DNA of 64,000 nt, taken from assembly GCA_035708065.1 (NCBI GenBank), contig DASSTC010000049.1:1694-65693 (forward strand), given 5' to 3'. A program made the position numbers and the translations under genes. Of this stretch, positions 27,470-42,380 are shown in pieces (position 1 is the first letter of the stretch; every line of letters starts with the position of its first letter). The DNA is from Candidatus Limnocylindria bacterium. GTDB taxonomy: Bacteria > Chloroflexota > Limnocylindria > QHBO01. The notes below the pieces were generated by a model. It saw only the letters and a list, made by a program, of their open reading frames with translations, was not told where the DNA came from and did not search any database.

Positions 27470-27545
27470 TGGTGGAGATGAGGGGACTCGAACCCCTGAC
27501 CCCCGCGATGCGAACGCGGTGCTCTCCCAGCTGAGCTACATCCCC
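27470..27545 (-). tRNA. tRNA-Ala (anticodon CGC)
   Basis: Reverse complement GGGGATGTAGCTCAGCTGGGAGAGCACCGCGTTCGCATCGCGGGGGTCAGGGGTTCGAGTCCCCTCATCTCCACCA: G3:U70, anticodon loop TT-CGC-AT, encoded CCA. Confidence 0.9.
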
Positions 27546-27577: not shown

Positions 27578-27593
27578 TAGAACATCCGTTCTA
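27578..27593. promoter_or_regulatory. LexA operator (Cheo-type SOS box, TAGAACATCCGTTCTA) embedded in the imuA promoter
   Basis: Perfect GAAC-N4-GTTC palindrome 13 nt upstream of the imuA ATG; the identical 16-mer recurs upstream of dnaE2. Flanking TTGCTG ... TATATG are plausible -35/-10 elements with the box in the spacer. Confidence 0.75.
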
Positions 27594-27605
27594 TATGATC
27601 GACCG

Positions 27606-28403
27606 ATGCACACGCAGGCTGCCCGTCCTCTCACCGATGTCCTCGAGGCGCTGCGCGAGAAAGGCCTGCGCAAGGGGGTCGGACCGATGCCCGGGCAGGT
27701 CGACGGGCCGTCGATCTCCACCGGCCATCCTCGGCTCGACGACGCGCTGCGCACCGGCGGCTGGCCTCGCGGCTCCCTCGCCCTGCTCGATGCGCCGCTC
27801 GGCAACGGCGCGACCTCGCTGGCGCTCGCCTCGCTGGCCGCCTGCCAGGCGGCCGGTGGCCTCGTCGCCTGGCTCGACCTCGAGGGCAGCTTCGACCCGT
27901 CGACCGCTGCCCGTGCGGACGTCAACCTCGAGTGGCTGCTGCTGGCACGTCCGCGTGACACCGGCGAGGCGGTGGAGCTCGCCGCCTGGCTGGCACGCAC
28001 GCGCCTGCTCGACGTCGTCGTGCTGGACCTGGGCGTGGCGGCCGTCGCCTCACGGACGCTGTCACGGCTGCCGGAGCTGCTGACCCGCTTCGGCGGCATC
28101 GTCCTGGCGCTGGCTCCCGCCGCCCGCGAGACCGTCGCCGGCGTCGCCGGGATCCGCGTCATGCTCGAGCGTCGGGCCTGGCTGTCGGTCGGCCGTGACG
28201 TGGTTGGGGAGCGGGTCGAGGCGATCGTCGCGCGTCACCGCTGGGCACTGGCCGGCGCCTCGACCGAGCTCGACCTGTGGTTCAGTGAAGGCCGGCGCGT
28301 CGACGCGCTGCTTCGGTCGCTGGCTTCGCCAGTCGCCGCCCGCGACCTCGAGCACCTGCGACCGATCGACCAGCAGCCTGCCCTCCGCGTCCTCTCCGCA
28401 TGA
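27606..28403 (+). CDS. imuA: ImuA (SulA/RecA-fold translesion mutasome protein)
   Basis: ISTGHPRLDDALRTGGWPRGSLALLDAPLGNGATSLAL ... VAWLDLEGSFDP is the ImuA signature; preceded by a LexA box and followed by imuB with ATGA overlap. Confidence 0.85.
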   Translation: MHTQAARPLTDVLEALREKGLRKGVGPMPGQVDGPSISTGHPRLDDALRTGGWPRGSLALLDAPLGNGATSLALASLAACQAAGGLVAWLDLEGSFDPSTAARADVNLEWLLLARPRDTGEAVELAAWLARTRLLDVVVLDLGVAAVASRTLSRLPELLTRFGGIVLALAPAARETVAGVAGIRVMLERRAWLSVGRDVVGERVEAIVARHRWALAGASTELDLWFSEGRRVDALLRSLASPVAARDLEHLRPIDQQPALRVLSA

Positions 28404-29620
28404 TCGATGCGCGCCTGCTGGCCCTGGTCTGGCCCGACCTCCGCCTGGCCGATGCCGACGTAGCGCCCTTCCAGCCGATGCTCGACGCGCTCGACGACCT
28501 CTCCCCGAGGATCGAGGCGGTCGACGTCGGGGTGGCGCTGGTCGATATCACGGGCCTCGGAGCGCTCTTCGGCAGCGAACGCCGGATCGCGGCACGCGCC
28601 GCAGCGCTGGCCCGCGAGGTCGCGCCGCTGGACGTCCGGGCCGGGATTGGCGACAACCGCTGGCTGGCGGTGCTCGCCGCGCGCCTCGGCCTGACAGGGG
28701 ACGCGCCGCTGCGCATCCTCGATCGGTCGGAGCTTCCCCAGCTCCCGCTCACCCTGCTGCCGGCCGATCCGGCGACGCGCCAGCGCTTCTCGCTCTTCGG
28801 GCTGACGACCTTCGGGCAGCTGGCGGCATTGCCACGCTCGGCGGTCGGTGCGCAGTTCGGCGCGACCGGCGAGCGGCTCCAGCAGCTCGCGCGCGGCAAC
28901 GACCCGCGGCCACTCGTCCCGCGCCGGCGTCCCGAGCGCCTCGTCGCCGAGCGCGCCTTCGAGCCGCCGCTGAGCGACGTCGGCGCGGCCGGTCTGGCGC
29001 TTCGCGCGCTCGTCACCGAGCTCGTCGACCGGCTGCGCGACCGCCACCTGGCGCCCGGACGCGCTGCCCTCGAGCTCGAGCGCGAGGATGCGGCACCGCT
29101 GCGCATCGAGCTTGCCTTCCCGCAGCCGGCGCTCGAGCCGGACTGGATCGCGCGCCTCCTCCTGTCACGCCTGGAGGCCGCGGCCCGTGGGTCCTTGCCA
29201 AACTTCAATCAGGACCGGCCAAGGCCGCCGGACCGGTCGAGTCAAGGACAGATGCAGGCACAGGAACTGGGCAAATCTATGCCGCACAGTCGGCATCGGC
29301 CCGATACCGCCGGCCCCAACCGGCCTAAGCCCGCTGTGGTCGGAGTTTGGCAAGCAGGCGACGACGAGCCAGGCGACGACGAGCCACAGGACGAGCCACG
29401 CATCGTGGGCATCGGTCTGGCCTTCGACCGGCTGAGCGACCCGCAGAGCCGCCAGCTGGCCGCCTTCGAGCCGCAGGCCGGTCGCTGGGAGGAGCTGCGC
29501 TGGTCGCTGGAGCGGGTGCGCGCGCGGTTCGGCGACGGCCGCCTGTGGCGTGCCGAGCACGTCCGCCCGAGCGCGTCGCTCGCCGAGCAGCGGTCGCGCC
29601 TGGTCGACATCGGACCATGA
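28400..29620 (+). CDS. imuB: ImuB (inactive Y-family polymerase-like mutasome subunit), carrying an in-frame palindromic-element insertion
   Basis: N-terminal RLLALVWPDLRL ... VALVDITG ... RAGIGDNRWLAVLAA Y-family fold lacking catalytic acidic residues; ImuA/ImuB/DnaE2 context. Confidence 0.85.
   Translation: MIDARLLALVWPDLRLADADVAPFQPMLDALDDLSPRIEAVDVGVALVDITGLGALFGSERRIAARAAALAREVAPLDVRAGIGDNRWLAVLAARLGLTGDAPLRILDRSELPQLPLTLLPADPATRQRFSLFGLTTFGQLAALPRSAVGAQFGATGERLQQLARGNDPRPLVPRRRPERLVAERAFEPPLSDVGAAGLALRALVTELVDRLRDRHLAPGRAALELEREDAAPLRIELAFPQPALEPDWIARLLLSRLEAAARGSLPNFNQDRPRPPDRSSQGQMQAQELGKSMPHSRHRPDTAGPNRPKPAVVGVWQAGDDEPGDDEPQDEPRIVGIGLAFDRLSDPQSRQLAAFEPQAGRWEELRWSLERVRARFGDGRLWRAEHVRPSASLAEQRSRLVDIGP
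29194..29354. repeat. small palindromic insertion element (TIR CTTGCCAAACT / AGTTTGGCAAG), in frame inside imuB
   Basis: 11-bp perfect terminal inverted repeats with imperfectly complementary extension to ~30 bp; a second copy with the same termini occurs in frame in dnaE2 (37541-37720). Confidence 0.65.
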
Positions 29621-32820: not shown

Positions 32821-35148
32821 TCAGCCGCCGATGAGCTTCAGCAGCTGGCTCTGCACGTTGGTGCTGACCACGCCGGTCCCGCCGAGGATCACCACCGTCT
32901 TGGCCCCCAGGCGCTTGATCTCGGTCGACGTCGCGGCCGGGATCGTGTCCTTGGTCACGAGCAGCAGCGGCGCGCCCTGGACCGATGCCGGTGGACCGCC
33001 GGCCAGCGCATCAGGGAAGTTCAGGCCGTTCGCCACGTAGACCACCTTCGCCCCGGTCGGGAACACCGCCTTCGAGACCGCCACGGCGGTCGACCAGCGG
33101 TCGGTGCCGGCGAGGCGAGTGACGTTGGCCGTCACCGTCTTCAGCTCGTTGACGGCCGTGCCGGAGACGACGCCCGTCCCGCCGAGCACGACGATCCTCG
33201 CCGGCTTCAGCCGCTTGAGCTCGGCCATGATCACCGTCGGCACGTCGTCCTTGGTGGTCAGCAGGATCGGCCCGTGCTGTCGCCCCGCCGCCGGGACGCC
33301 GGCGAGCGCGTCGGGGAAGTTCACGCCCGTCGCCACGTACACGACCGGCACCGGGATGGTGCTGAACGTCGTCGAGGAGATCGTCGCCGAGGTCGAGTAG
33401 CGGTCCGCGCCCGCGCGCCGCACGACGACCGACGAGTACTTGGCGAGGTCCGATTTGATCTTGTCGGAGACGACCCCGGTGCCCCCGACGACCACGATCT
33501 TCTTCGGCTTCAGCCGCGTCAGCTCGCTCGCCGTCTCGGTTGGGATCCCGGTTGGCGCCACCAGCAGGACCGGTCCGCCTTCCTTCGCCGCTGCCGGCCC
33601 GGCCGACAGCGCATCGGCGAATCCGGTCCCGGTGGCGATATAGACGACCGGCACCGGGACGGTCTTGTATCGGTTGAAGGAGACCGATGCCGCCGTCGCG
33701 TAGCGGTTCGCGCCGGAGTAGCGCACCACGGTCGGCTTCGTCGTCGGCGTCGCGGTCGCGGTCGGCTTCGGGGTAGCCGTCGCGCTCGGTTTCGGGGTCG
33801 CCGTGGCGGTCGGCTTCGCTGTCGCCGACGGCGTGGCGGTCGGCGGCGGGCTCGACAGCGAGGTGAAGCTGTGCAGGTAGTAGCCCGACTTCCGGTCGGA
33901 CCCGACGACGAGCATGCCCGTCGTCGCGCTCGGATTCTGCTTGCTGGTCGACGGGTCGTTGATCGCGGTGTCGCTACTGCTCTGCATCAGCGCCGTCCCC
34001 TTGCCCGCCGGGAACGTGAGCGTGCTCAGCGGGGCCCACTTGTAGTAGACGACGCCGCCATTCTCGGACTCGGCGGCGAAGAAGTAGATGCGGCTATTGG
34101 CCGTGTCGATCGCGATCTGCGGTCGGGTCTGGTTGTTGTCCACGCCGGCGACGTCACGCAGGGTCACCCCGTGCGTGCTCCAGGCCCCCGTGGCGCTGCG
34201 AGCCGCGAGGTAGGTGACGTACTCCTCGGACTGGTCGGTCATCGTCTTCAGCGCCGCGTAGACCACGCCGTTCAGGGTTTTGAGGTTCATGTGGTCGTTG
34301 GCGATCGTCTTGCCCCAGGCGACCTTCTCGCGCGTCGACCAGGTCCCGGTGGGGTCGCCGTCGGTATGCGTCGAGAACCAGAAGCCGGTCTCACCGTTTC
34401 CATCGGCCACCTGGTCGCTCCACATCACGCCGATCTTGTTCGGGGCGAAGGCGATCACCGCCGAGATGTCGTCTGCAGCGGGCGAAGAGCCCTGACTGGG
34501 CAGCACCTGATTTGACCAGGTGAGGCCGTCAGTGCTGCTCGCAATCCACACGTCGTCCCGGGCCGTGTTGGCGTTGGGCAGCGTGTAGGTGACCCACATG
34601 CGCCCGGTCGAGTCCCGCGCGATCGTCGCCGACTCGGCGGCGCCGGCATCGATCGTGACGCCGGTCAGGATCGGGAAGCCGGCGTCCGCGGTGTAGGTGC
34701 CCGATGCGAACGTGTAGCGGAAGACATGCACGCCCGGCGTCGACGCCGAGTCGTCGGTCGAGACGACCCACAGCTTGTTGTTGGCGCCGTCGAACAGGTA
34801 ATCGCCGTGCGACTTGTTGCGCTCGTCGATCTTGACGCCGGTGGTCGTCCAGGTCTGCGTCGACGTATTGAGCTGGTAGATCTCGTACTCGCCGTTGCCG
34901 CCGCCGGCCGGCAGGTGGAACAGGCCGCCCCACCACGAGCCGCCGGCGTACCAGACCTTGGACTGCGGCTTGTCGGCGGTTGCCCGGAACGTGTTGGTGG
35001 TACTGGCGGGCTGGTACTGGAAGTCCCGATAGCCGGCCGTGACGGCCACGGCGTTGCTCGTCCCCGTCGCGATGGTGACCGCGGCGACCATGGCGGCGAC
35101 GAAGGCGACGAACGGCAGACGGAGTGAGCGCAGGGTACGCGCGGGCAA
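32821..35148 (-). CDS. secreted surface protein: N-terminal BNR/sialidase-like beta-propeller region, Pro/Thr/Ala linker, three CWB2 (cell-wall-binding 2) repeats
   Basis: Signal peptide from TTG 35148 after a GGGGGAGG SD; STDGLTWSN BNR-like motif; three C-terminal ~100-aa repeats (RYSGANRYATAASVS...VVGGTGVVS) of the CWB2 type. Hand counts of three 60-nt lines in this gene gave 60-68% GC against ~78% for one flanking line. Confidence 0.75.
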   Translation of the reverse strand: MPARTLRSLRLPFVAFVAAMVAAVTIATGTSNAVAVTAGYRDFQYQPASTTNTFRATADKPQSKVWYAGGSWWGGLFHLPAGGGNGEYEIYQLNTSTQTWTTTGVKIDERNKSHGDYLFDGANNKLWVVSTDDSASTPGVHVFRYTFASGTYTADAGFPILTGVTIDAGAAESATIARDSTGRMWVTYTLPNANTARDDVWIASSTDGLTWSNQVLPSQGSSPAADDISAVIAFAPNKIGVMWSDQVADGNGETGFWFSTHTDGDPTGTWSTREKVAWGKTIANDHMNLKTLNGVVYAALKTMTDQSEEYVTYLAARSATGAWSTHGVTLRDVAGVDNNQTRPQIAIDTANSRIYFFAAESENGGVVYYKWAPLSTLTFPAGKGTALMQSSSDTAINDPSTSKQNPSATTGMLVVGSDRKSGYYLHSFTSLSSPPPTATPSATAKPTATATPKPSATATPKPTATATPTTKPTVVRYSGANRYATAASVSFNRYKTVPVPVVYIATGTGFADALSAGPAAAKEGGPVLLVAPTGIPTETASELTRLKPKKIVVVGGTGVVSDKIKSDLAKYSSVVVRRAGADRYSTSATISSTTFSTIPVPVVYVATGVNFPDALAGVPAAGRQHGPILLTTKDDVPTVIMAELKRLKPARIVVLGGTGVVSGTAVNELKTVTANVTRLAGTDRWSTAVAVSKAVFPTGAKVVYVANGLNFPDALAGGPPASVQGAPLLLVTKDTIPAATSTEIKRLGAKTVVILGGTGVVSTNVQSQLLKLIGG

Positions 35149-35586
35149 CAGAACCTCCCCCTCGGTGCGAGGAATGATCTTCCGCCAGAGAGCAGCGGAA
35201 CGATGGAGCGTGCAGCCTACCCCAAAGTACTGGCGCAGTACCAGACCCGGTGCCCGGCGCTGTTGACGTGCGGAAACGGTTTGGTCTTGATCCGCTGTCG
35301 AACTTCGTGCCGCGACTTCGCACCGGCGACTCCGGCTGCGCCGAGGGCGCACATGCCGTCCTGGTGCGCGCTAACCGAGTCCGCGGCGCCCAGCGGCGGC
35401 TTCGTCGTGCTCGGTCACGCTCAGGTCCAGCGTCAGGGTGCCTCTGCCACTCACCTAACGCGCACCAGCGCGGCATATGCGCGGTCGAAGCGAAGCGCCG
35501 GGCCTGGTGCGCTCCGGAGGCGCAGTCGCACGGCCGAAGTCCATTCGAATCGGCTGCTGAGCTCACGCCTGCACCCCCGTACCAGT

Positions 35587-35602
35587 TAGAACATCCGTTC
35601 TA
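35587..35602. promoter_or_regulatory. LexA operator (TAGAACATCCGTTCTA) in the dnaE2 promoter
   Basis: Identical 16-mer to the imuA box (18-bp identity including the flanking TA), 14 nt upstream of the dnaE2 ATG; TATACT -10-like hexamer overlaps its 3' edge. Confidence 0.75.
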
Positions 35603-35616
35603 TACTGCACGGTCCG

Positions 35617-38600
35617 ATGCCGACGCCGGACGACCCCGCCGCCTACTGCGAGCTGCACGCGCACAGCAACTTCAGCTTCCTCGACGGCGCGAGCCACGTC
35701 GAGGATCTGGTGGCCCTGGCGGCGCTCCTCGATCTCCCGGCGCTGGCGATCACCGATCACGCCGGCCTGTACGCCGCCGTCCGGCTGGTCAAGGCAGCCG
35801 AGCAGACCCAGACCGATGCCGCACGGTCCGCTGGCCTCTCCCCGGTCCGCCCCATCATCGGCCTGGAGCTGTCGATTCCCCGTGACGAGCACGAGCTGCG
35901 GCTCGCGCGTCGCGGTCGCAAGCTGAACGACCCGCTGCGTGGCGAGCGCGCCAGCCGCGGCTGGCCGGGCGAGCTGCATGCCGGACCGATGCCCGGCGAC
36001 CATCTCGTGCTGCTGGCACGCGATGGCGACGGCTACACCGCCCTGTCGCGCCTGGCCAGCCGCGGCCATCTCGCCGGGGAGAAGCAGTTCCCGATCTTCG
36101 AGCGCTCGCTCGTCGAGGCGGCGCTCGACGAGGCACGCGGCCACCTCATCGGGCTGTCCGGCTGTCGCAACGGCGAGGTGCCGCGCCGCCTGCTGGCCGG
36201 CGACGACGGCGAGGCGCTGGCCACGGCGCAACGCTGGGCGAGCCACTTCCCGGAGGGAGGCTTCGGCGTGGAGCTCAGCCATCACCTGCAGCCCGACGAC
36301 GACTGGCTCGTCGCACAGCTCGCCGAGCTGGCGCGGCGCGCCGGGCTGCCCACGGTGGTCACCAACGAGGTGCACTACGCCGAGCCCGGCGGGCATCGGC
36401 TTCAGGACGTCCTCGTCTGCATCCGCCACGGGGCGACGCTGACCGAGGCCCGCGAGCTGCTGCTGCCGAACGCCGAGTACCGGCTGAAGTCAGCGGCCGA
36501 GCTCGCAGCCATCGGTGCCGTCCTGCCCGAGGCGAGTGCGCGCCGGGCGTGGCGGCAGGGGATGGCCGAGGCGGCCCGCATCGGTCAGGCCTGCCGGCTG
36601 GATCTCAATTTCGAGCGCTATCGGTTTCCGGGCTTCACGGTCCCCGAGGGCGAGACGCCGTTCTCATATCTGTACCAGCTTGCACACGACGGCTTACTGC
36701 GCCGTTACCGGCCCATTACCAAGCGCGCACTGCAGCAGCTGACCCACGAGCTGGACATCATCGAGCGGACGCACCTCGCCGAGTTCTTCCTGATCGTGTG
36801 GGACCTGATGGAGTTCGCGCGACGGCGCGGGATCATCGGGCAGGGGCGGGGGAGCGCCGGCGACTCGATCGTGGCCTACTGCCTGGGCATCACCAAGGTC
36901 GATCCGATCGAGCACAAGCTGCTCTTCGAGCGCTTCATCAACGAGGCGCGCACGCTGCCCGACATCGACCTCGACTTCGACGTCAACCGCCGCGAGGAGG
37001 TGATCCAGTACCTGTACACCACGTACGGCGCGGATCACGCCGCGATGGTCTGCACCATCGTCACCTACCGGGCCCGATCGGCCGTGCGCGAGGTGGCCAA
37101 GGCGCTGGGCTTCCCGGCGGCATCGGTCGACCGGCTGGCCAAGGCGCTCGACACGCGCGATGCCTCGGACGTTGCCCGTGACCTGGCGTTGGACGGCTCG
37201 TTCGCCTGGCTCTTCGACGAGCTGGGGATCGACATGGATGCGGCGGCGGTGCCACCCGGCCGCGACGGTCGCGGCCAGCCGGTCTCGGAGGGCGGCTGGT
37301 ACCCGCCGAAGCGGCCGCGCGTCTTCGACCAGTCGGTGACCGCCATCCGATTCGAGGCGACCCAGACGAAGCGCTACGCTGCGGGCGTTGTGCCCGAGCA
37401 CTTGCCGCAGCCCCGCGACACCGGGTCGCCCGGTCCGGCCAGCGAGCGGCGCGCCGTCGTCCGCGTCGATCCGGAGAGCGGGATGCCGATCGAGGAGCGA
37501 CGTGCGCGGTCGGTGATGTTGATCGCTGGCGGTCCGCAACCTGGCCAAACTTCAACCAGGATCGGCTTAGACAAAGACAAGGCGTCCGGGATGGGTGGCG
37601 GCGACGGAAATCGGCCCGCAAACCCCGCAAATCTTGGCACCCAAGGCGCTCGGAAGCCATCCGCGGCCTCGGCGCCCGGTACTCGCCTGCCTAAGCCCGG
37701 TGTCATTCAAGTTTGGCAAGAATCGGGCGAATCAGGCGCGGATGCGACGGATGCGACCGATGCCACCGATCCCACCGATGGGACCGCAGCCACGGCAGCC
37801 ACCACTCCCCACGCCGCTCCCCGCAACCGGTGGCAATGGCTGCTCCAGCTGTGCGGCGAGATCGACGCCTTCCCGCGTCACCTCGGCATCCACGTCGGCG
37901 GAATGCTGGTGACCCGCACCCCGCTCATCGACCTCGTGCCGATCGAAAAGGCGACGATGCCGAACCGGGTCGTGACCCAGTACGACAAGGAGGACATCGA
38001 GCAGCTCGGCCTGGTGAAGATCGACCTGCTCAGCCTGCGCACCCTCGGCGTGGTGGCCGATGCGCTCGACCGCATCGAGCGCGACACGCAGACGCGGCCC
38101 GACCTCGATCAACTCCCCCACGACGACCCCGACGTCTTCAAGACCATCCGCACTGCCGATACGGTCGGCATGTTCCAGATCGAGAGCCGCGCGCAGATGC
38201 AGGCGCTGCCCAAAGCCCGTCCCGAGCGCTTCGAGGACCTCGTCGTGCAGGTCGCGATCATCCGGCCCGGCCCGATCCAGGGCAACGCCGTGCATCCCTA
38301 CCTGCGACGGCGTGCCGGTGCCGAGGAGGTGACCTACCTCCATCCGAGCCTTGAGCCGATCCTCAGCGACACGCTCGGCGTGATCCTCTACCAGGAGCAG
38401 GTGATGCAGATCGCCATCGACGTCTGCGGCTACACGCCGCTCGAGGCGGACATCTTCCGCAAGGCGATGGGCAGCCATCGCAGCCATCGCGAGATGGAGA
38501 AGGAGCACGCGCGCTTCGTGACCGGCGCCCAGCGCACCGGGCTGACAGGCGACGACGCCGAGGAGCTCTTCAAGCGCTGCGGCGCATTCGCCGAGTTCGG

Positions 38601-39570
38601 CTTCGCTCGAGCGCACGCCGCGGCCTTCGCCAAGATCACCTACGACACCGCCTGGCTGAAGCTGCATTACCCGGCGCACTACTACGCCGGCATCCTCAAC
38701 AACCAGCCGATGGGCTTCTACTCCCCGGCGGTGATCGTCAACGACGCCAAGCGTCACGGCATCGCCGTCCTGCCCGTCGACGTCAACGAGTCGGCATGGG
38801 AGCACGACACCCGACCGATGCCGGACGGCAGGTTCGCCCTGCGCCTGGGGCTGAGCCAGGTCAAGGGCATCGGCGAGGCCGAGCGGGAGCGTCTCACCAT
38901 CGAACGTGCAACCGGTCCGTATCGGTCCGTCAGGGAGTTCGTGGCGCGCACCGGACTGGGCGAGCAGGTCATCGAACGGCTGATCAGCATCGGTGCCTTC
39001 GACTGGACCGATGCGCCGCGTCGCGAGCTGCTCTGGCAGCTGCGCAGCACCCTGGCCGACGCGAACCCCGCGCATCCCGCGCTGGGCCTGACCGATGACG
39101 CCCAGCGCACGCTGGGTGCCTCCCTGCCGGCGATGACCGATGCAGAACGGGTCGCCGCCGACTACCGCGACACCGGCGTCTCGCCGAATCTCCACGCCGT
39201 CGAGCTGTACCGCGAGCGCCTGGCTGGTGCCGGCGTGATCCCGGTGGCCGATGCCGGCCGGCGCCGGGATCGCTCGATGATCCGGCTGGCAGGGCTGGCG
39301 GTCAGCATCCAGCACCCGATGACCGCCAAGCACTTCGTCTTCATCGCGCTCGAGGACGAGAGCGGCATGATCAACGTCACCCTGCGGCCGGACGTCTACC
39401 AGCGCTACCGCGGCCTGCTGCATCGCCACCCGCTGCTGGTGATCGACGGCGTCCTGCAGGTGGAGGGCGAGGTCCTCAACGTCGTCGCGCGGCGAGTGCG
39501 CGGCGTCGACGAGGTCGTGGCCGAGACGACCCGGATGGATCTCACGCGGCAGCAGCGGATGTTCCGCTAG
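35617..39570 (+). CDS. dnaE2: error-prone DNA polymerase DnaE2 (ImuC), with a ~200-aa low-complexity insertion
   Basis: N-terminus YCELHAHSNFSFLDGASHVEDLV (the DnaE2-type PHP start), palm/fingers motifs (HVGGMLV, PDIDLDF), OB fold; 1317 aa against ~1050-1100 typical. Confidence 0.9.
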   Translation: MPTPDDPAAYCELHAHSNFSFLDGASHVEDLVALAALLDLPALAITDHAGLYAAVRLVKAAEQTQTDAARSAGLSPVRPIIGLELSIPRDEHELRLARRGRKLNDPLRGERASRGWPGELHAGPMPGDHLVLLARDGDGYTALSRLASRGHLAGEKQFPIFERSLVEAALDEARGHLIGLSGCRNGEVPRRLLAGDDGEALATAQRWASHFPEGGFGVELSHHLQPDDDWLVAQLAELARRAGLPTVVTNEVHYAEPGGHRLQDVLVCIRHGATLTEARELLLPNAEYRLKSAAELAAIGAVLPEASARRAWRQGMAEAARIGQACRLDLNFERYRFPGFTVPEGETPFSYLYQLAHDGLLRRYRPITKRALQQLTHELDIIERTHLAEFFLIVWDLMEFARRRGIIGQGRGSAGDSIVAYCLGITKVDPIEHKLLFERFINEARTLPDIDLDFDVNRREEVIQYLYTTYGADHAAMVCTIVTYRARSAVREVAKALGFPAASVDRLAKALDTRDASDVARDLALDGSFAWLFDELGIDMDAAAVPPGRDGRGQPVSEGGWYPPKRPRVFDQSVTAIRFEATQTKRYAAGVVPEHLPQPRDTGSPGPASERRAVVRVDPESGMPIEERRARSVMLIAGGPQPGQTSTRIGLDKDKASGMGGGDGNRPANPANLGTQGARKPSAASAPGTRLPKPGVIQVWQESGESGADATDATDATDPTDGTAATAATTPHAAPRNRWQWLLQLCGEIDAFPRHLGIHVGGMLVTRTPLIDLVPIEKATMPNRVVTQYDKEDIEQLGLVKIDLLSLRTLGVVADALDRIERDTQTRPDLDQLPHDDPDVFKTIRTADTVGMFQIESRAQMQALPKARPERFEDLVVQVAIIRPGPIQGNAVHPYLRRRAGAEEVTYLHPSLEPILSDTLGVILYQEQVMQIAIDVCGYTPLEADIFRKAMGSHRSHREMEKEHARFVTGAQRTGLTGDDAEELFKRCGAFAEFGFARAHAAAFAKITYDTAWLKLHYPAHYYAGILNNQPMGFYSPAVIVNDAKRHGIAVLPVDVNESAWEHDTRPMPDGRFALRLGLSQVKGIGEAERERLTIERATGPYRSVREFVARTGLGEQVIERLISIGAFDWTDAPRRELLWQLRSTLADANPAHPALGLTDDAQRTLGASLPAMTDAERVAADYRDTGVSPNLHAVELYRERLAGAGVIPVADAGRRRDRSMIRLAGLAVSIQHPMTAKHFVFIALEDESGMINVTLRPDVYQRYRGLLHRHPLLVIDGVLQVEGEVLNVVARRVRGVDEVVAETTRMDLTRQQRMFR
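37541..37720. repeat. second copy of the palindromic insertion element (TIR CTGGCCAAACTTCAA / TTCAAGTTTGGCAAG), in frame inside dnaE2
   Basis: Shares the termini and the internal CCTAAGCCCG block with the imuB copy; both copies end by encoding ...PKP.V..VWQ.. in the host frame. Confidence 0.65.
37738..37803. repeat. 9-bp tandem repeat (GATGCGACS x5, then GCAGCCACS x2), in frame inside dnaE2
   Basis: gatgcgacg gatgcgacc gatgccacc gatcccacc gatgggacc gcagccacg gcagccacc, encoding DAT-DAT-DAT-DPT-DGT-AAT-AAT, immediately 3' of the palindromic element. Confidence 0.7.
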
Positions 39571-40619: not shown

Positions 40620-42380
40620 GTGCTGGTCATCGGGCTGGCGCTGCTCTGGATCGTCGGCCGACGCCTGTCGCCCCGCGACCTGGGGCACCGCGCGGCGGTC
40701 ATGCTGGCTGCCGTCTCGTTGCCGGTCGCCGTGGCGCTGCCACTGAGCTGGTTCGCCGGCGTCTCCCGGGACGTGGGTCTCTTCGAGGTGTGCCTGCTCG
40801 TCGCCGCCGTCCTCGCCGTCCTCACGGGCGCCACGCTGGCGCTCGCCCGCCCTCCGCTCGGCGCCTGGCTTCGGCGTCCGAGCCTGGCGGGCGCCTCGCG
40901 CGCCGAGCTGCTGCTGATCGGAGGAATCCTTGTGCTCTTCGCGGCAATCGTGGTGCGGCTCATCGCGGTCCGCCCGGTGATGGGCTTCGATGAGTCGATC
41001 TACGCGCTGACCTCGCGCTGGTGGGTGAGCGGCACGCCGAACACCGGCTGGTCGGCGCACCGCTCGCCGGGGATGTCGCTGCTGGGCATTGTCGCCGTGC
41101 CGTTCGCACCGGCCGAGGCACCGTTCCGGGTGTTCGGCCTGCTGTTCGGACTCGGCGCGCTGGCGGTCACCTGGCGGCTCGGCCGGGAGCTGGCCGGGCC
41201 GGCGGCCGGAGTCGCCGCCGCGCTGACGGTCGCCACCATTCCCGACTTCCAGCTGAATGCCGGCGCGTTCCTCACCGACGTGCCGTCGGCGGCGCTGATG
41301 ATCCTGCTCATGCTGCTCGCCTGGCGCTGCTTTGAGACCGGGGCCGAAGCCGACCCGGCTGGCGCGCGTCGCGGGCTGCTGCTCCTTGCTCCCGTCGCCG
41401 CGATCACGTTCTACGTCCGCTACGGCGCCGCGGTGCCGATCGTGCTGCTCGTCGCGACCGTCCTCCTGCTGTGGCCGGGGCGCATCTGGCGCTGGTGGCG
41501 GAGCGTGCTCGTCACGGCGGCGCTCCTCGTCGTGCTGCTGGTGCCGCACATGATCTATGCCACCAGCCTGCTCGGTGCCCCCTGGAGCATCGCGCTCAGC
41601 GCGCGGAACCTCGCCGCGCCGGCGTACCTCGGCCAGGCGCTGCAGATCTACCTGTCGCAGTTCTTCACCACCGTTGCGGGACCGATCGCCGGGGCGCTCG
41701 CCGTGGCCGGCATCGGGGGCGCGGCGTTCCACCTCCTGGCTCGGCGTCGGTTCGATCGCCTGTCGAGGGCGTACCTGTTCGTCCTGCTCCCGGCCCTCTC
41801 GGTTGGCCTGCTGCTCGGCCTCGTCACGCTGGCACAGACGCGCTACATCTACGTGTCGCTGATCCTCCTCGCGGTTGCCGGCGGCCTCGCCATCGCGCCG
41901 CTCTGGCGGCGCCTGCCCACGCTGCCGCGCATCGGAACGGCCACGCTCGCGTTCGTCGCGATCGCCATCGCGATGCTGAACGCAGGCACGACCATGGTCG
42001 CCGCGCAGGCGGCGTATGCCCGCACCCAGCGCGACATCGTCATCGCCAGCGAACGGATCCGGGCCGATGCGCTGGACTCCAGCCCGGGTGGCCACCTCGA
42101 CTGCTCGGTGCTCGCCTTCCCGGTGCCGGCGGTGACCTGGTATTCCGGCTGCGCGACGTTCCACTTCGGTTATCCGGCACAGCCCGGTCGCGATGCACTG
42201 CTCACCGGGCCGCATCGGTATCTCGTGCTCCTCTCGGGAACGACCGTTCGCCAGCCGCAGGGACCGATGCTCGACGGCTACCTGCGCCTCGTCGAGCCGC
42301 AGCCATTCGCCACGGTCGATGACCAGGCCGCCGGCGGCATCGCGGTCCGGATCTACCGGTTCCGCACCCCCGCGAACTGA
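40620..42380 (+). CDS. GT-C fold membrane glycosyltransferase (ArnT/PMT family, GT39/GT83-like)
   Basis: 586 aa polytopic membrane protein with a MGFDESIYAL ... W-rich periplasmic-loop signature typical of ArnT/PMT family; GTG start; follows the GT2 gene. Confidence 0.7.
   Translation: MLVIGLALLWIVGRRLSPRDLGHRAAVMLAAVSLPVAVALPLSWFAGVSRDVGLFEVCLLVAAVLAVLTGATLALARPPLGAWLRRPSLAGASRAELLLIGGILVLFAAIVVRLIAVRPVMGFDESIYALTSRWWVSGTPNTGWSAHRSPGMSLLGIVAVPFAPAEAPFRVFGLLFGLGALAVTWRLGRELAGPAAGVAAALTVATIPDFQLNAGAFLTDVPSAALMILLMLLAWRCFETGAEADPAGARRGLLLLAPVAAITFYVRYGAAVPIVLLVATVLLLWPGRIWRWWRSVLVTAALLVVLLVPHMIYATSLLGAPWSIALSARNLAAPAYLGQALQIYLSQFFTTVAGPIAGALAVAGIGGAAFHLLARRRFDRLSRAYLFVLLPALSVGLLLGLVTLAQTRYIYVSLILLAVAGGLAIAPLWRRLPTLPRIGTATLAFVAIAIAMLNAGTTMVAAQAAYARTQRDIVIASERIRADALDSSPGGHLDCSVLAFPVPAVTWYSGCATFHFGYPAQPGRDALLTGPHRYLVLLSGTTVRQPQGPMLDGYLRLVEPQPFATVDDQAAGGIAVRIYRFRTPAN

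Follow-up and report, generated by a model that had tools for sequence, protein, structure and literature searches.

A length-variable nonamer array beside a palindromic element in a thumb loop of dnaE2 from Candidatus Limnocylindria

How does the catalytic subunit of an error-prone DNA polymerase come to carry a short tandem repeat in its coding sequence, and does this repeat serve the enzyme? The question is raised by dnaE2 of Candidatus Limnocylindria bacterium (Chloroflexota), on a stretch of 64,000 nucleotides (contig DASSTC010000049.1, positions 1,694 to 65,693) that is called the window hereafter. In this gene, a palindromic element is followed by an array of 9-bp units, which a previous sequence-only reading had described as a slipped-strand hotspot within a length-variable linker. 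Replication slippage probably gave rise to the nonamer array, in a loop of the DnaE2 thumb that is free of structural constraint and already held an old palindrome inserted in frame. The slippage-prone, length-variable linker of dnaE2 is real and, by itself, ordinary. The part worth following is the concentration of related palindromes and slippage tracts in the genes of the SOS mutasome.

The features of dnaE2 on which the argument relies are the following, all coordinates being those of the window.

35,617 to 39,570, forward strand: dnaE2 open reading frame (ORF), 1317 amino acids (aa), error-prone Pol III alpha (ORF list, Pfam, and exact protein match HET8571407.1)
37,486 to 37,824, forward strand: hypervariable linker 'site 1' of the thumb domain, between ...VDPESGM and NRWQWLL
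37,541 to 37,720, forward strand: palindromic element copy B, family 1, 180 nt, read through in frame (codons 642-702)
37,720 to 37,738, forward strand: two-copy 9-bp repeat GAATCGGGC GAATCAGGC (ESG ESG), detected by Tandem Repeats Finder (TRF), which duplicates the 3'-terminal nonamer of the element
37,741 to 37,785, forward strand: five in-phase nonamers GATGCGACG GATGCGACC GATGCCACC GATCCCACC GATGGGACC, encoding DAT DAT DAT DPT DGT
37,786 to 37,803, forward strand: two nonamers GCAGCCACG GCAGCCACC, encoding AAT AAT, with four A/T-rich units in relatives

The nonamer array and its length variants

The array is in phase with the ORF, because its first base lies 2124 nt (708 × 3) from that of the gene. 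It shows the head-to-tail copies, the period that is a multiple of three, and the start on a first codon base that characterize coding variable-number tandem repeats (VNTRs). TRF delimits it at 37,741-37,786, with a period of 9, 5.1 copies, 83% matches, and a score of 57; arrays scoring 50 or more are not rare in this GC-rich window, with about nine in 64 kb. The array had been read as a perfect repeat of five GATGCGACS units and two GCAGCCACS units. Five nonamers are indeed followed by two copies of GCAGCCACS, but GATGCGACS fits units 1 and 2 only, and units 3, 4, and 5 deviate from it by 1, 2, and 2 bases, respectively, so that 'perfect' does not apply. Likewise, (AAT)2 is encoded as proposed, but (DAT)n amounts to (DAT)3 plus DPT and DGT, the translation from the end of the element being ESG ESG A DAT DAT DAT DPT DGT AAT AAT. 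Nor does the array directly follow the element: 20 nt (AATCGGGCGAATCAGGCGCG) lie between them, and they themselves form the two-copy 9-bp repeat, which also takes in the last base of the element. Relatives carry GAATCGGGTGATTCGGAC or GAATCGGGCGGATCGGAC in place of this ESG ESG repeat.

Length variation among close relatives was examined on JGI proteins belonging to the 90%-identity clusters around the window protein and P0012, with flanks that are 96.9-97.7% identical. These relatives carry other alleles, all in frame, which bears out the view of a slipped-strand, length-variable tract. The comparison of copy number and frame among strains, which had been proposed as a check, gives three alleles at about 97% flank identity, with whole-unit differences as in VNTRs. 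The long allele (protein WQESG(G/D)SDAHATDAADATDATDATDAGATAATTATTAATHAAPR; P0122, P0123, P0012, and P0124) reads HAT DAA DAT DAT DAT DAG, followed by four A/T units, and the short allele (WQESGDSDAHATDAADATDAGATASTAATTAATHAAPR; P0125 and P0127) is the long one minus exactly two DAT units, while the window allele reads WQESGESGADATDATDATDPTDGTAATAATTPHAAPR. At the DNA level, the perfect unit GATGCGACC occurs three times consecutively in the long allele (loci L001 and L093) and once in the short one (L094), the two alleles being 18 nt apart.

The same region is variable on a larger scale. Across 75 species-level dnaE2 orthologues, fetched from GTDB genomes of Limnocylindria, the linker ranges from 84 to 393 nt and is in frame in 74. 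TRF arrays scoring at least 50 are found in 13 of 76 linkers (18.9 kb), compared with seven loci, two of them in a second insertion site, over 115.5 kb of coding sequence further downstream in dnaE2; strong arrays are, thus, about 11-fold denser in the linker. Their units are specific to each species, for example, SNATT ×3 (15 bp) in L002, a 12-bp unit ×7.5 in L005, PTT (9 bp) in L060, EDP ×5 (9 bp) in L023, and DAD/VSD (9 bp) in L003. As the units differ between species (9, 12, and 15 nt), the linker is a recurrent slippage hot spot and not the seat of a conserved motif.

A phase-variable switch was considered and rejected. Like contingency loci, the array is a slippage-prone repeat within a gene that affects mutability; unlike them, it has a unit of 9 nt, which precludes frameshift and on/off switching, and all the alleles and nearly all the orthologues seen are in frame.

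It is hardly credible that the array is an assembly artefact, which the sequence-only reading had named as a possible refutation. Metagenomic contigs do often break in or near the array region (L001 begins inside the element, and there are many fragments), and one contig, L094, has a 471-nt duplication of the region. Nevertheless, the array consists of 63 nt of non-identical units, which is shorter than a read, homologous arrays in the same register occur in at least six independent JGI contigs, and the ORF is intact.

Some side observations concern the assembly of this region. Metagenomic contigs and gene calls often begin or end in the dnaE2 linker or in the upstream palindrome (L001:1-60; L093:1-303), and annotations of DnaE2, therefore, often consist of two 'partial' proteins with lengths of about 600-740 aa. 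Several DnaE2 proteins from long-read metagenome-assembled genomes (MAGs) end in frameshifted tails. The dnaE2 gene of L094 (6001-10461, JGI Ga0483897_42127) encodes 1486 aa, owing to a tandem duplication of the whole linker region; its first copy has the short allele with several odd substitutions, its second copy the long allele, and the two are probably co-occurring strain variants assembled in series.

The position of the linker in the protein differs from the one first proposed, between the PHP domain and the polymerase core: it lies within the thumb helix-loop-helix. Pfam splits PF07733 around the insertion, with a first stretch ending at residue 516. In the alignment to Taq Pol III alpha (2HPI), DnaE2 residues 371-512 correspond to Taq 383-526 and residues 739-821 to Taq 555-635. 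The Taq thumb helix-loop-helix being formed by residues 513-552 (PMC3919608), about 200 extra residues therefore replace its tip. The proposed size of some 200 aa is, thus, correct for the extra residues, but the description as low-complexity sequence is too wide, as only about aa 636-735 are hypervariable and about aa 545-635 are conserved in the class. Alignment with nine relatives confines the hypervariable stretch between ...VDPESGMPIEERR and ...APRNRWQWLL. In an AlphaFold model of a 427-aa fragment, the mean predicted local distance difference test (pLDDT) score is 48.7, and residues 551-736 have a pLDDT of 30-40 and no secondary structure. The net charge of the linker is -3.9 ± 2.5 irrespective of its length (r = -0.17). 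The peptide encoded by the element has a charge of +4 both in dnaE2 and in imuB, where a second copy lies, and the adjacent repeats have charges of -6 (dnaE2) and -7 (imuB), which suggests that acidity may be what selection sees.

[quoted passage not shown] Replication slippage in the loop would then have created the nonamer array and resized it by whole units. The loop accepts almost any in-frame sequence, from 28 to 131 aa, and short arrays have appeared in it time and again, most of them with a period divisible by three. Selection would act only on the open ORF, and perhaps on an acidic loop, while the palindrome next to the array may stall replication and thereby favour slippage. The array is, thus, a spacer length polymorphism; it does not act as an on/off switch and, as far as the present evidence goes, is not a tuned functional module either. 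The imuB gene of the window supports this explanation, since it repeats the architecture, and its element-free relative also lacks the duplication.

Several points weigh against slippage beside an old palindrome as the explanation. The window array is degenerate, and its present slippage rate is probably low, because just two adjacent units are identical. Its exact allele is recorded in one MAG only, with no exact DnaE2 match in the contig index, and the alleles were compared between assemblies and not within the population of this genome. The link between palindrome and slippage is one of co-occurrence, with arrays found on both sides of the element. The disorder of the linker is weakly indicated by a poor model, and the charge compensation is a suggestive correlation without a proper null model.

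The palindromic element and its counterpart in imuB

The ends of copy B match over 15 nt (CTGGCCAAACTTCAA and TTCAAGTTTGGCAAG; 0 such matches expected by chance), and an inner pair, GGCTTAG/CTAAGCC, surrounds the centre CCGCAAATCT. As a palindrome it is weak, with an arm-arm score of 24 versus a 95th percentile of 21.5 for shuffles. Families were defined by clustering the inserts from all loci. Copy B falls into family 1, which counts 36 dnaE2 and 7 imuB copies and has the ends TTGCCAAA...TTTGGCAAG, an inner CTTAG...CTAAG, and often the centre G(C/T)AAATCT. Family 2, with the structure AGTTGCCG..GGAGCTAACGGCC...GGCCGTTAGCTCC..CGGCAACT, is found in dnaE2 of five loci and in imuB of at least three. 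The 15-nt ends, the inner TTAG/CTAA, the lengths of 161 and 180 nt for the two window copies, and the lack of a transposase ORF correspond to the size and structure of a MITE. The frame is open through the window copies in dnaE2 and imuB, as in Rickettsia palindromic elements (RPEs), as well as through the inserts at the imuB site, at dnaE2 site 1 (74/75 loci), and at dnaE2 site 2 in the loci examined.

Two other identities were rejected. An intein does not fit an insert of about 60 aa (inteins have at least about 130 aa), with the junctions ..GGPQ|PGQT.. and ..VWQ|ESG.., where the Cys/Ser/Thr expected on the N-terminal side and the His-Asn plus Cys/Ser/Thr expected on the C-terminal side are lacking, and with no Pfam intein domain. 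A known RNA family does not fit either, as Rfam gave no match for the whole window at the gathering threshold, nor for the two copies at E ≤ 1.

The second copy and its genetic context are defined by the following features.

29,194 to 29,354, forward strand: palindromic element copy A, family 1, 161 nt, in frame in the little-finger loop of ImuB
29,355 to 29,399, forward strand: 15-bp tandem repeat CAGGCGACGACGAGC ×2 with an incomplete further copy (GDDEP GDDEP QDEP), immediately 3' of copy A
27,606 to 28,403, forward strand: imuA-like ORF (RecA-like; Pfam RecA), overlapping the imuB start by 4 nt
28,400 to 29,620, forward strand: imuB-like ORF, 406 aa, Y-family polymerase-like (Pfam IMS and IMS_C)
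27,580 to 27,591, forward strand: LexA-type box GAACATCCGTTC, identical second copy, 14 nt before imuA
35,589 to 35,600, forward strand: LexA-type box GAACATCCGTTC, 17 nt before the dnaE2 start codon, conserved in the relative L094

The window DnaE2 is the same protein as HET8571407.1, which is encoded on a 71,612-bp contig of a Candidatus Limnocylindria (Chloroflexota) MAG, and has the Pfam set PHP, DNA_pol3_alpha (two stretches), finger, HHH_6, and OB. The imuA-imuB pair lies 6 kb upstream of dnaE2 in the window, and imuB orthologues are found upstream of dnaE2 in about 40 loci. A search of the window for the pattern GAAC-N4-GTTC gave three matches versus 0.48 expected, and LexA control of imuA and dnaE2 is inferred from the agreement of their boxes with this consensus. 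The Pfam domains, the identical boxes, presumed to be LexA operators, and the nearby imuA and imuB together identify the host gene as dnaE2 of a split SOS mutagenesis cassette.

Copy A is the second-longest inverted repeat of the window (I2), with an RNA fold z of -2.0. The 15-bp repeat that follows it has a TRF score of 64 and 100% matches. A close JGI lineage, present in more than 24 contigs, has an ImuB of 351 aa (P0132) and lacks the element: 153 nt (window 29,195-29,347) are absent, and a single unit GGCGACGGCGAGGAA stands in place of the duplication. The repeated unit is, therefore, part of the host flank and not of the element. In this one imuB comparison, the 153-nt filled/empty difference is flanked by TCC|T...TT|TGG, with no clear target-site duplication. 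The gap looks like an in-frame deletion that left the last 7 nt of the right arm, judging from the aligned sequences. The more distant L004 carries the element at the same imuB site, with an orthologous centre, so that the close relative most likely lost it by in-frame deletion. This filled/empty pair is the one natural comparison in which the element and the adjacent duplication go together. In this close lineage (L095:9001-10056, also L096 and L097), TCGCAAGCAGGC is kept where the window has TGGCAAGCAGGC.

These data bear on a possible but doubtful alternative, in which array and element are both dead relics of an ordinary dispersed MITE burst, similar to RPEs, with the array as the variable tail of the element. 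A palindrome of 130-180 nt without its own ORF, read through in frame, is the situation described for RPEs in PMC10969869. Moreover, both window copies, and copies in many species, have tandem arrays adjoining their 3' arm, the last nonamer of the element itself is duplicated in the ESG-ESG repeat, and the arm mismatches show decay. However, the array units are unrelated between copies and species, and the imuB unit pre-exists singly in the element-free relative, as host flank. Dispersed copies were not found in the sampled DNA and the collection scans presented below, and the arms are conserved better than the interior, which is unexpected for a relic.

Distribution and nucleotide-level constraint of the palindromes

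Members of families 1 and 2 lie at four places, namely, the imuA-imuB junction, the loop of imuB, and two loops of dnaE2; family 2 was placed at the junction and at dnaE2 site 2 by profile searches. With nhmmer and blast, no copy of either family was detected in the remainder of the window (64 kb) or in other dnaE2-neighbouring DNA from 80 genomes, about 0.82 Mb in all; as this amounts to about 10 kb of non-mutasome DNA per genome, each genome could still have dispersed copies, provided that they number fewer than about 12. The enrichment in the roughly 6 kb of mutasome genes is more than 100-fold. Pattern scans gave 0 matches for the 3' arm of the window element in genome_contigs and 0 for its two-arm pattern in metagenome_contigs. 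The arm of subfamily 1a gave 10 matches in metagenome_contigs, of which four are true, all in dnaE2 site 1, the other six being chance matches in DNA of 46-63% GC. A peptide-profile search for other host proteins returned nothing at E ≤ 10, with a profile that is too weak for this purpose.

This distribution raises another explanation, namely that the elements and their repeat tails are a cis-acting DNA feature specific to SOS mutasome genes, and not passive relics. A factor acting in trans, such as an HUH/RAYT-like nuclease or a regulator, might maintain or regenerate them, or they might be due to targeted insertion into genes induced through LexA. Both the confinement to mutasome sites in the DNA of the 80 genomes and the restriction of the true subfamily-1a matches to dnaE2 site 1 argue for it. 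Nevertheless, this explanation is unlikely: the sampled non-mutasome DNA leaves room for the dispersed copies bounded above, the sites are filled only here and there (16 of about 42 in imuB, and 12 loci at site 2), and the element was deleted without harm in an abundant close relative.

The arms themselves provide further evidence in its favour. The motif GCAAATCT is read as A-N-L in the window dnaE2, as G-K-S in the window imuB, and as Q-I-Y in the imuB of L039, and TTGCCAAAC is read as LPN or GQT; since the frame in which a given motif is translated varies, conservation of the arms is at the nucleotide level. Between the window and its closest relative, L093, identity reaches 93% in the flanks, 83.5% at flanking third codon positions, and 89-91% in the arms, versus 70% in the interior. 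Many species pairs give a suggestive picture for arms versus interior, but their choice is tied to arm identity, and the comparison is therefore based on window-L093 and window-L003 alone, the two pairs chosen a priori; a first comparison of element and flank identity, based on gap-rich global alignments with a baseline of about 75%, was uninformative. The imuB arms of the window and of L004 are closest to the dnaE2 arms of their own genome (41 vs 31 and 44 vs 27, respectively), while the centres are closest between orthologues (34). This within-genome similarity is seen in two of the six genomes tested and absent in the four others, which weighs against a general cis-acting feature. Subfamilies also turn over at site 1 between very close species, as L039 and L041 have flanks that are 94% identical and arms that are 58% identical.

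Arm complementarity is above that of shuffles for most copies (30-45 versus a mean of 15.5), the window dnaE2 copy having the lower score given above. Among 13 orthologous 153-nt copies, 83.5% of the cells are paired versus 71.3% in shuffles, and 15 pairs show double changes versus 9.5 expected, neither value being reached in any of 500 shuffles; slid controls give 30-42%. This covariation also favours a cis-acting feature, although the arm mismatches, with 75 of the G.U type, 104 of the A.C type, and 199 transversions, are mostly transversions, as in decay.

Covariation could also be expected of a structured RNA in the imuB and dnaE2 mRNAs, such as an RNase III site or a regulatory hairpin, with the repeat as a spacer keeping the hairpin in context. 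The same LexA-type box on both host genes and the fold of the imuB copy are in line with it. However, this is very improbable, as G.U-type mismatches are not in excess over A.C-type ones, the fold of the dnaE2 copy is not superior to that of shuffles (z = +0.27), the RNAalifold consensus is -9.5 kcal/mol with a covariation term of only -0.3, Rfam is silent, and the element is dispensable in a close relative. The lack of wobble preference and the weak thermodynamics imply that the pairing is a DNA-level property with visible decay, and not a selected RNA hairpin.

In the loci L002-L060, family-1 copies trimmed to common columns comprise 10 of exactly 132 nt and 13 of exactly 153 nt, with well-diverged sequences. 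Indels seem excluded from the element itself, while the flanks vary freely in length. Overall, the observations on constraint do not fit a simple dead relic, and their number is too small for a mechanism to be established. Candidates include the correction of quasi-palindromes by template switching, short gene conversions, recombination of linkers between lineages, and recognition by a trans-acting factor. A broader proposal, to be held only tentatively and with the odds against it, is that of a Limnocylindria-wide palindrome superfamily of about 130-180 nt, specific to LexA-controlled mutasome genes, with arms kept at the nucleotide level and homogenised between imuB and dnaE2 within genomes, and with subfamilies swapped among close species. 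If this were true, it would point to targeted insertion into SOS-induced genes or to a DNA-level function in the mutasome, and slippage provoked by the hairpins would have left the neighbouring tandem repeats as a by-product.

Observations at the other sites complete this description. Site 2 of dnaE2, WEHDTRP...ALRLGLRQVKG, precedes the helix-hairpin-helix motif and is empty in the window (38,797-38,853). In 12 species it holds in-frame inserts of 33-80 aa with two or three GTTGC-N7-GCAAC hairpins (L003 (7453-7608), L005, L025, L032, L045, L063, L068, L072, L073, L075, L077, and L082). Several of these inserts translate to CxxC...CxC peptides resembling zinc knuckles (e.g., RCATCN...GRCRCGN in L073). 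Palindromes are found at the imuA-imuB junction in L034:1278-1442, L021:529-688, L006:800-936, and L081:2997-3287; the L034 element matches family 2 at E = 3e-7, and in the window the two genes overlap by 4 nt.

Known repeat systems and the surrounding region

The nonamer array resembles coding VNTRs and minisatellites of disordered linkers by its unit length, its whole-unit differences between strains, its maintained frame, and its acidic, Thr-rich low complexity. Unlike typical coding VNTRs, it resides in the catalytic subunit of an SOS polymerase and not in a surface protein, and it is short and degenerate. Length heterogeneity of the DnaE2 thumb was already noted by Timinskas et al. (2014, PMC3919608). 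The insertion described here likewise lies in the thumb helix-loop-helix, but neither palindromic insertions nor tandem repeats were named there as the source of the variation, and Limnocylindria were not covered.

RPEs are palindromes of about 150 bp that are found in frame in ORFs, translated, and located at fold-compatible positions (Ogata et al. 2000, 2002, summarised in PMC10969869). The window element is, similarly, a translated palindrome in a permissive loop. However, whereas RPEs occur in many unrelated genes with a conserved peptide, the copies described here were found just in imuA, imuB, and dnaE2, that is, in mutasome genes only, with the same nucleotides read in different frames. 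The host phylum, Chloroflexota, and a genome of 70% GC are further differences. As short imperfect palindromes without their own coding genes, the elements also resemble REP/REPIN/BIME sequences and MITEs (Correia, ERIC, and Nezha), and the GTTGC-N7-GCAAC hairpins of family 2, in inverted pairs, are reminiscent of REP doublets. REPs and REPINs are extragenic, with tens to hundreds of copies, and MITEs have many dispersed, mostly intergenic copies. In contrast, the copies in the sampled DNA are intragenic, save at the imuA-imuB junction, low in number, and restricted to one gene set.

Viewed in isolation, the nonamer array is an everyday case of length polymorphism in coding DNA, of value as a strain marker and as a warning of assembly breaks in dnaE2. 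The broader significance is that the catalytic and accessory subunits of an SOS polymerase bear related palindromes and slippage tracts in surface loops throughout an uncultured soil class. If the gene-set specificity holds in complete genomes, this would be one of the few repeat families linked to a single functional module, and would offer a handle on the coupling of hairpin DNA, SOS induction, and insertion/deletion. If it fails, these would be the first RPE-like translated palindromes described outside Rickettsia-type genomes.

Other features of the region are of minor importance. The third GAAC-N4-GTTC match, at 42,238, lies within a PMT_2-like ORF and is probably due to chance. A tRNA gene (27,473-27,545, reverse strand) ends 35 nt before the imuA box and could mark a cassette integration site. 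The longest inverted repeat of the window (I1; 35,342-35,487) has 39-nt arms that are 77% complementary and 68 nt apart. It is intergenic, 130-275 nt upstream of dnaE2, and its sequence is unrelated to families 1 and 2; no relatives of it were found, even in the closest lineage (L094), where the intergenic region upstream of dnaE2 has a different palindrome, CGCCTCGACT...AGTCGAGGCG. Between imuB and dnaE2, an ORF of 843 aa (32,821-35,352, reverse strand), for which no Pfam match is on record in relatives, contains, especially at 32,859-33,526 and 33,729-33,856, three internal repeats of about 300 nt and an 18/24-bp tandem array. This array is the strongest tandem repeat of the window, with a TRF score of up to 112.

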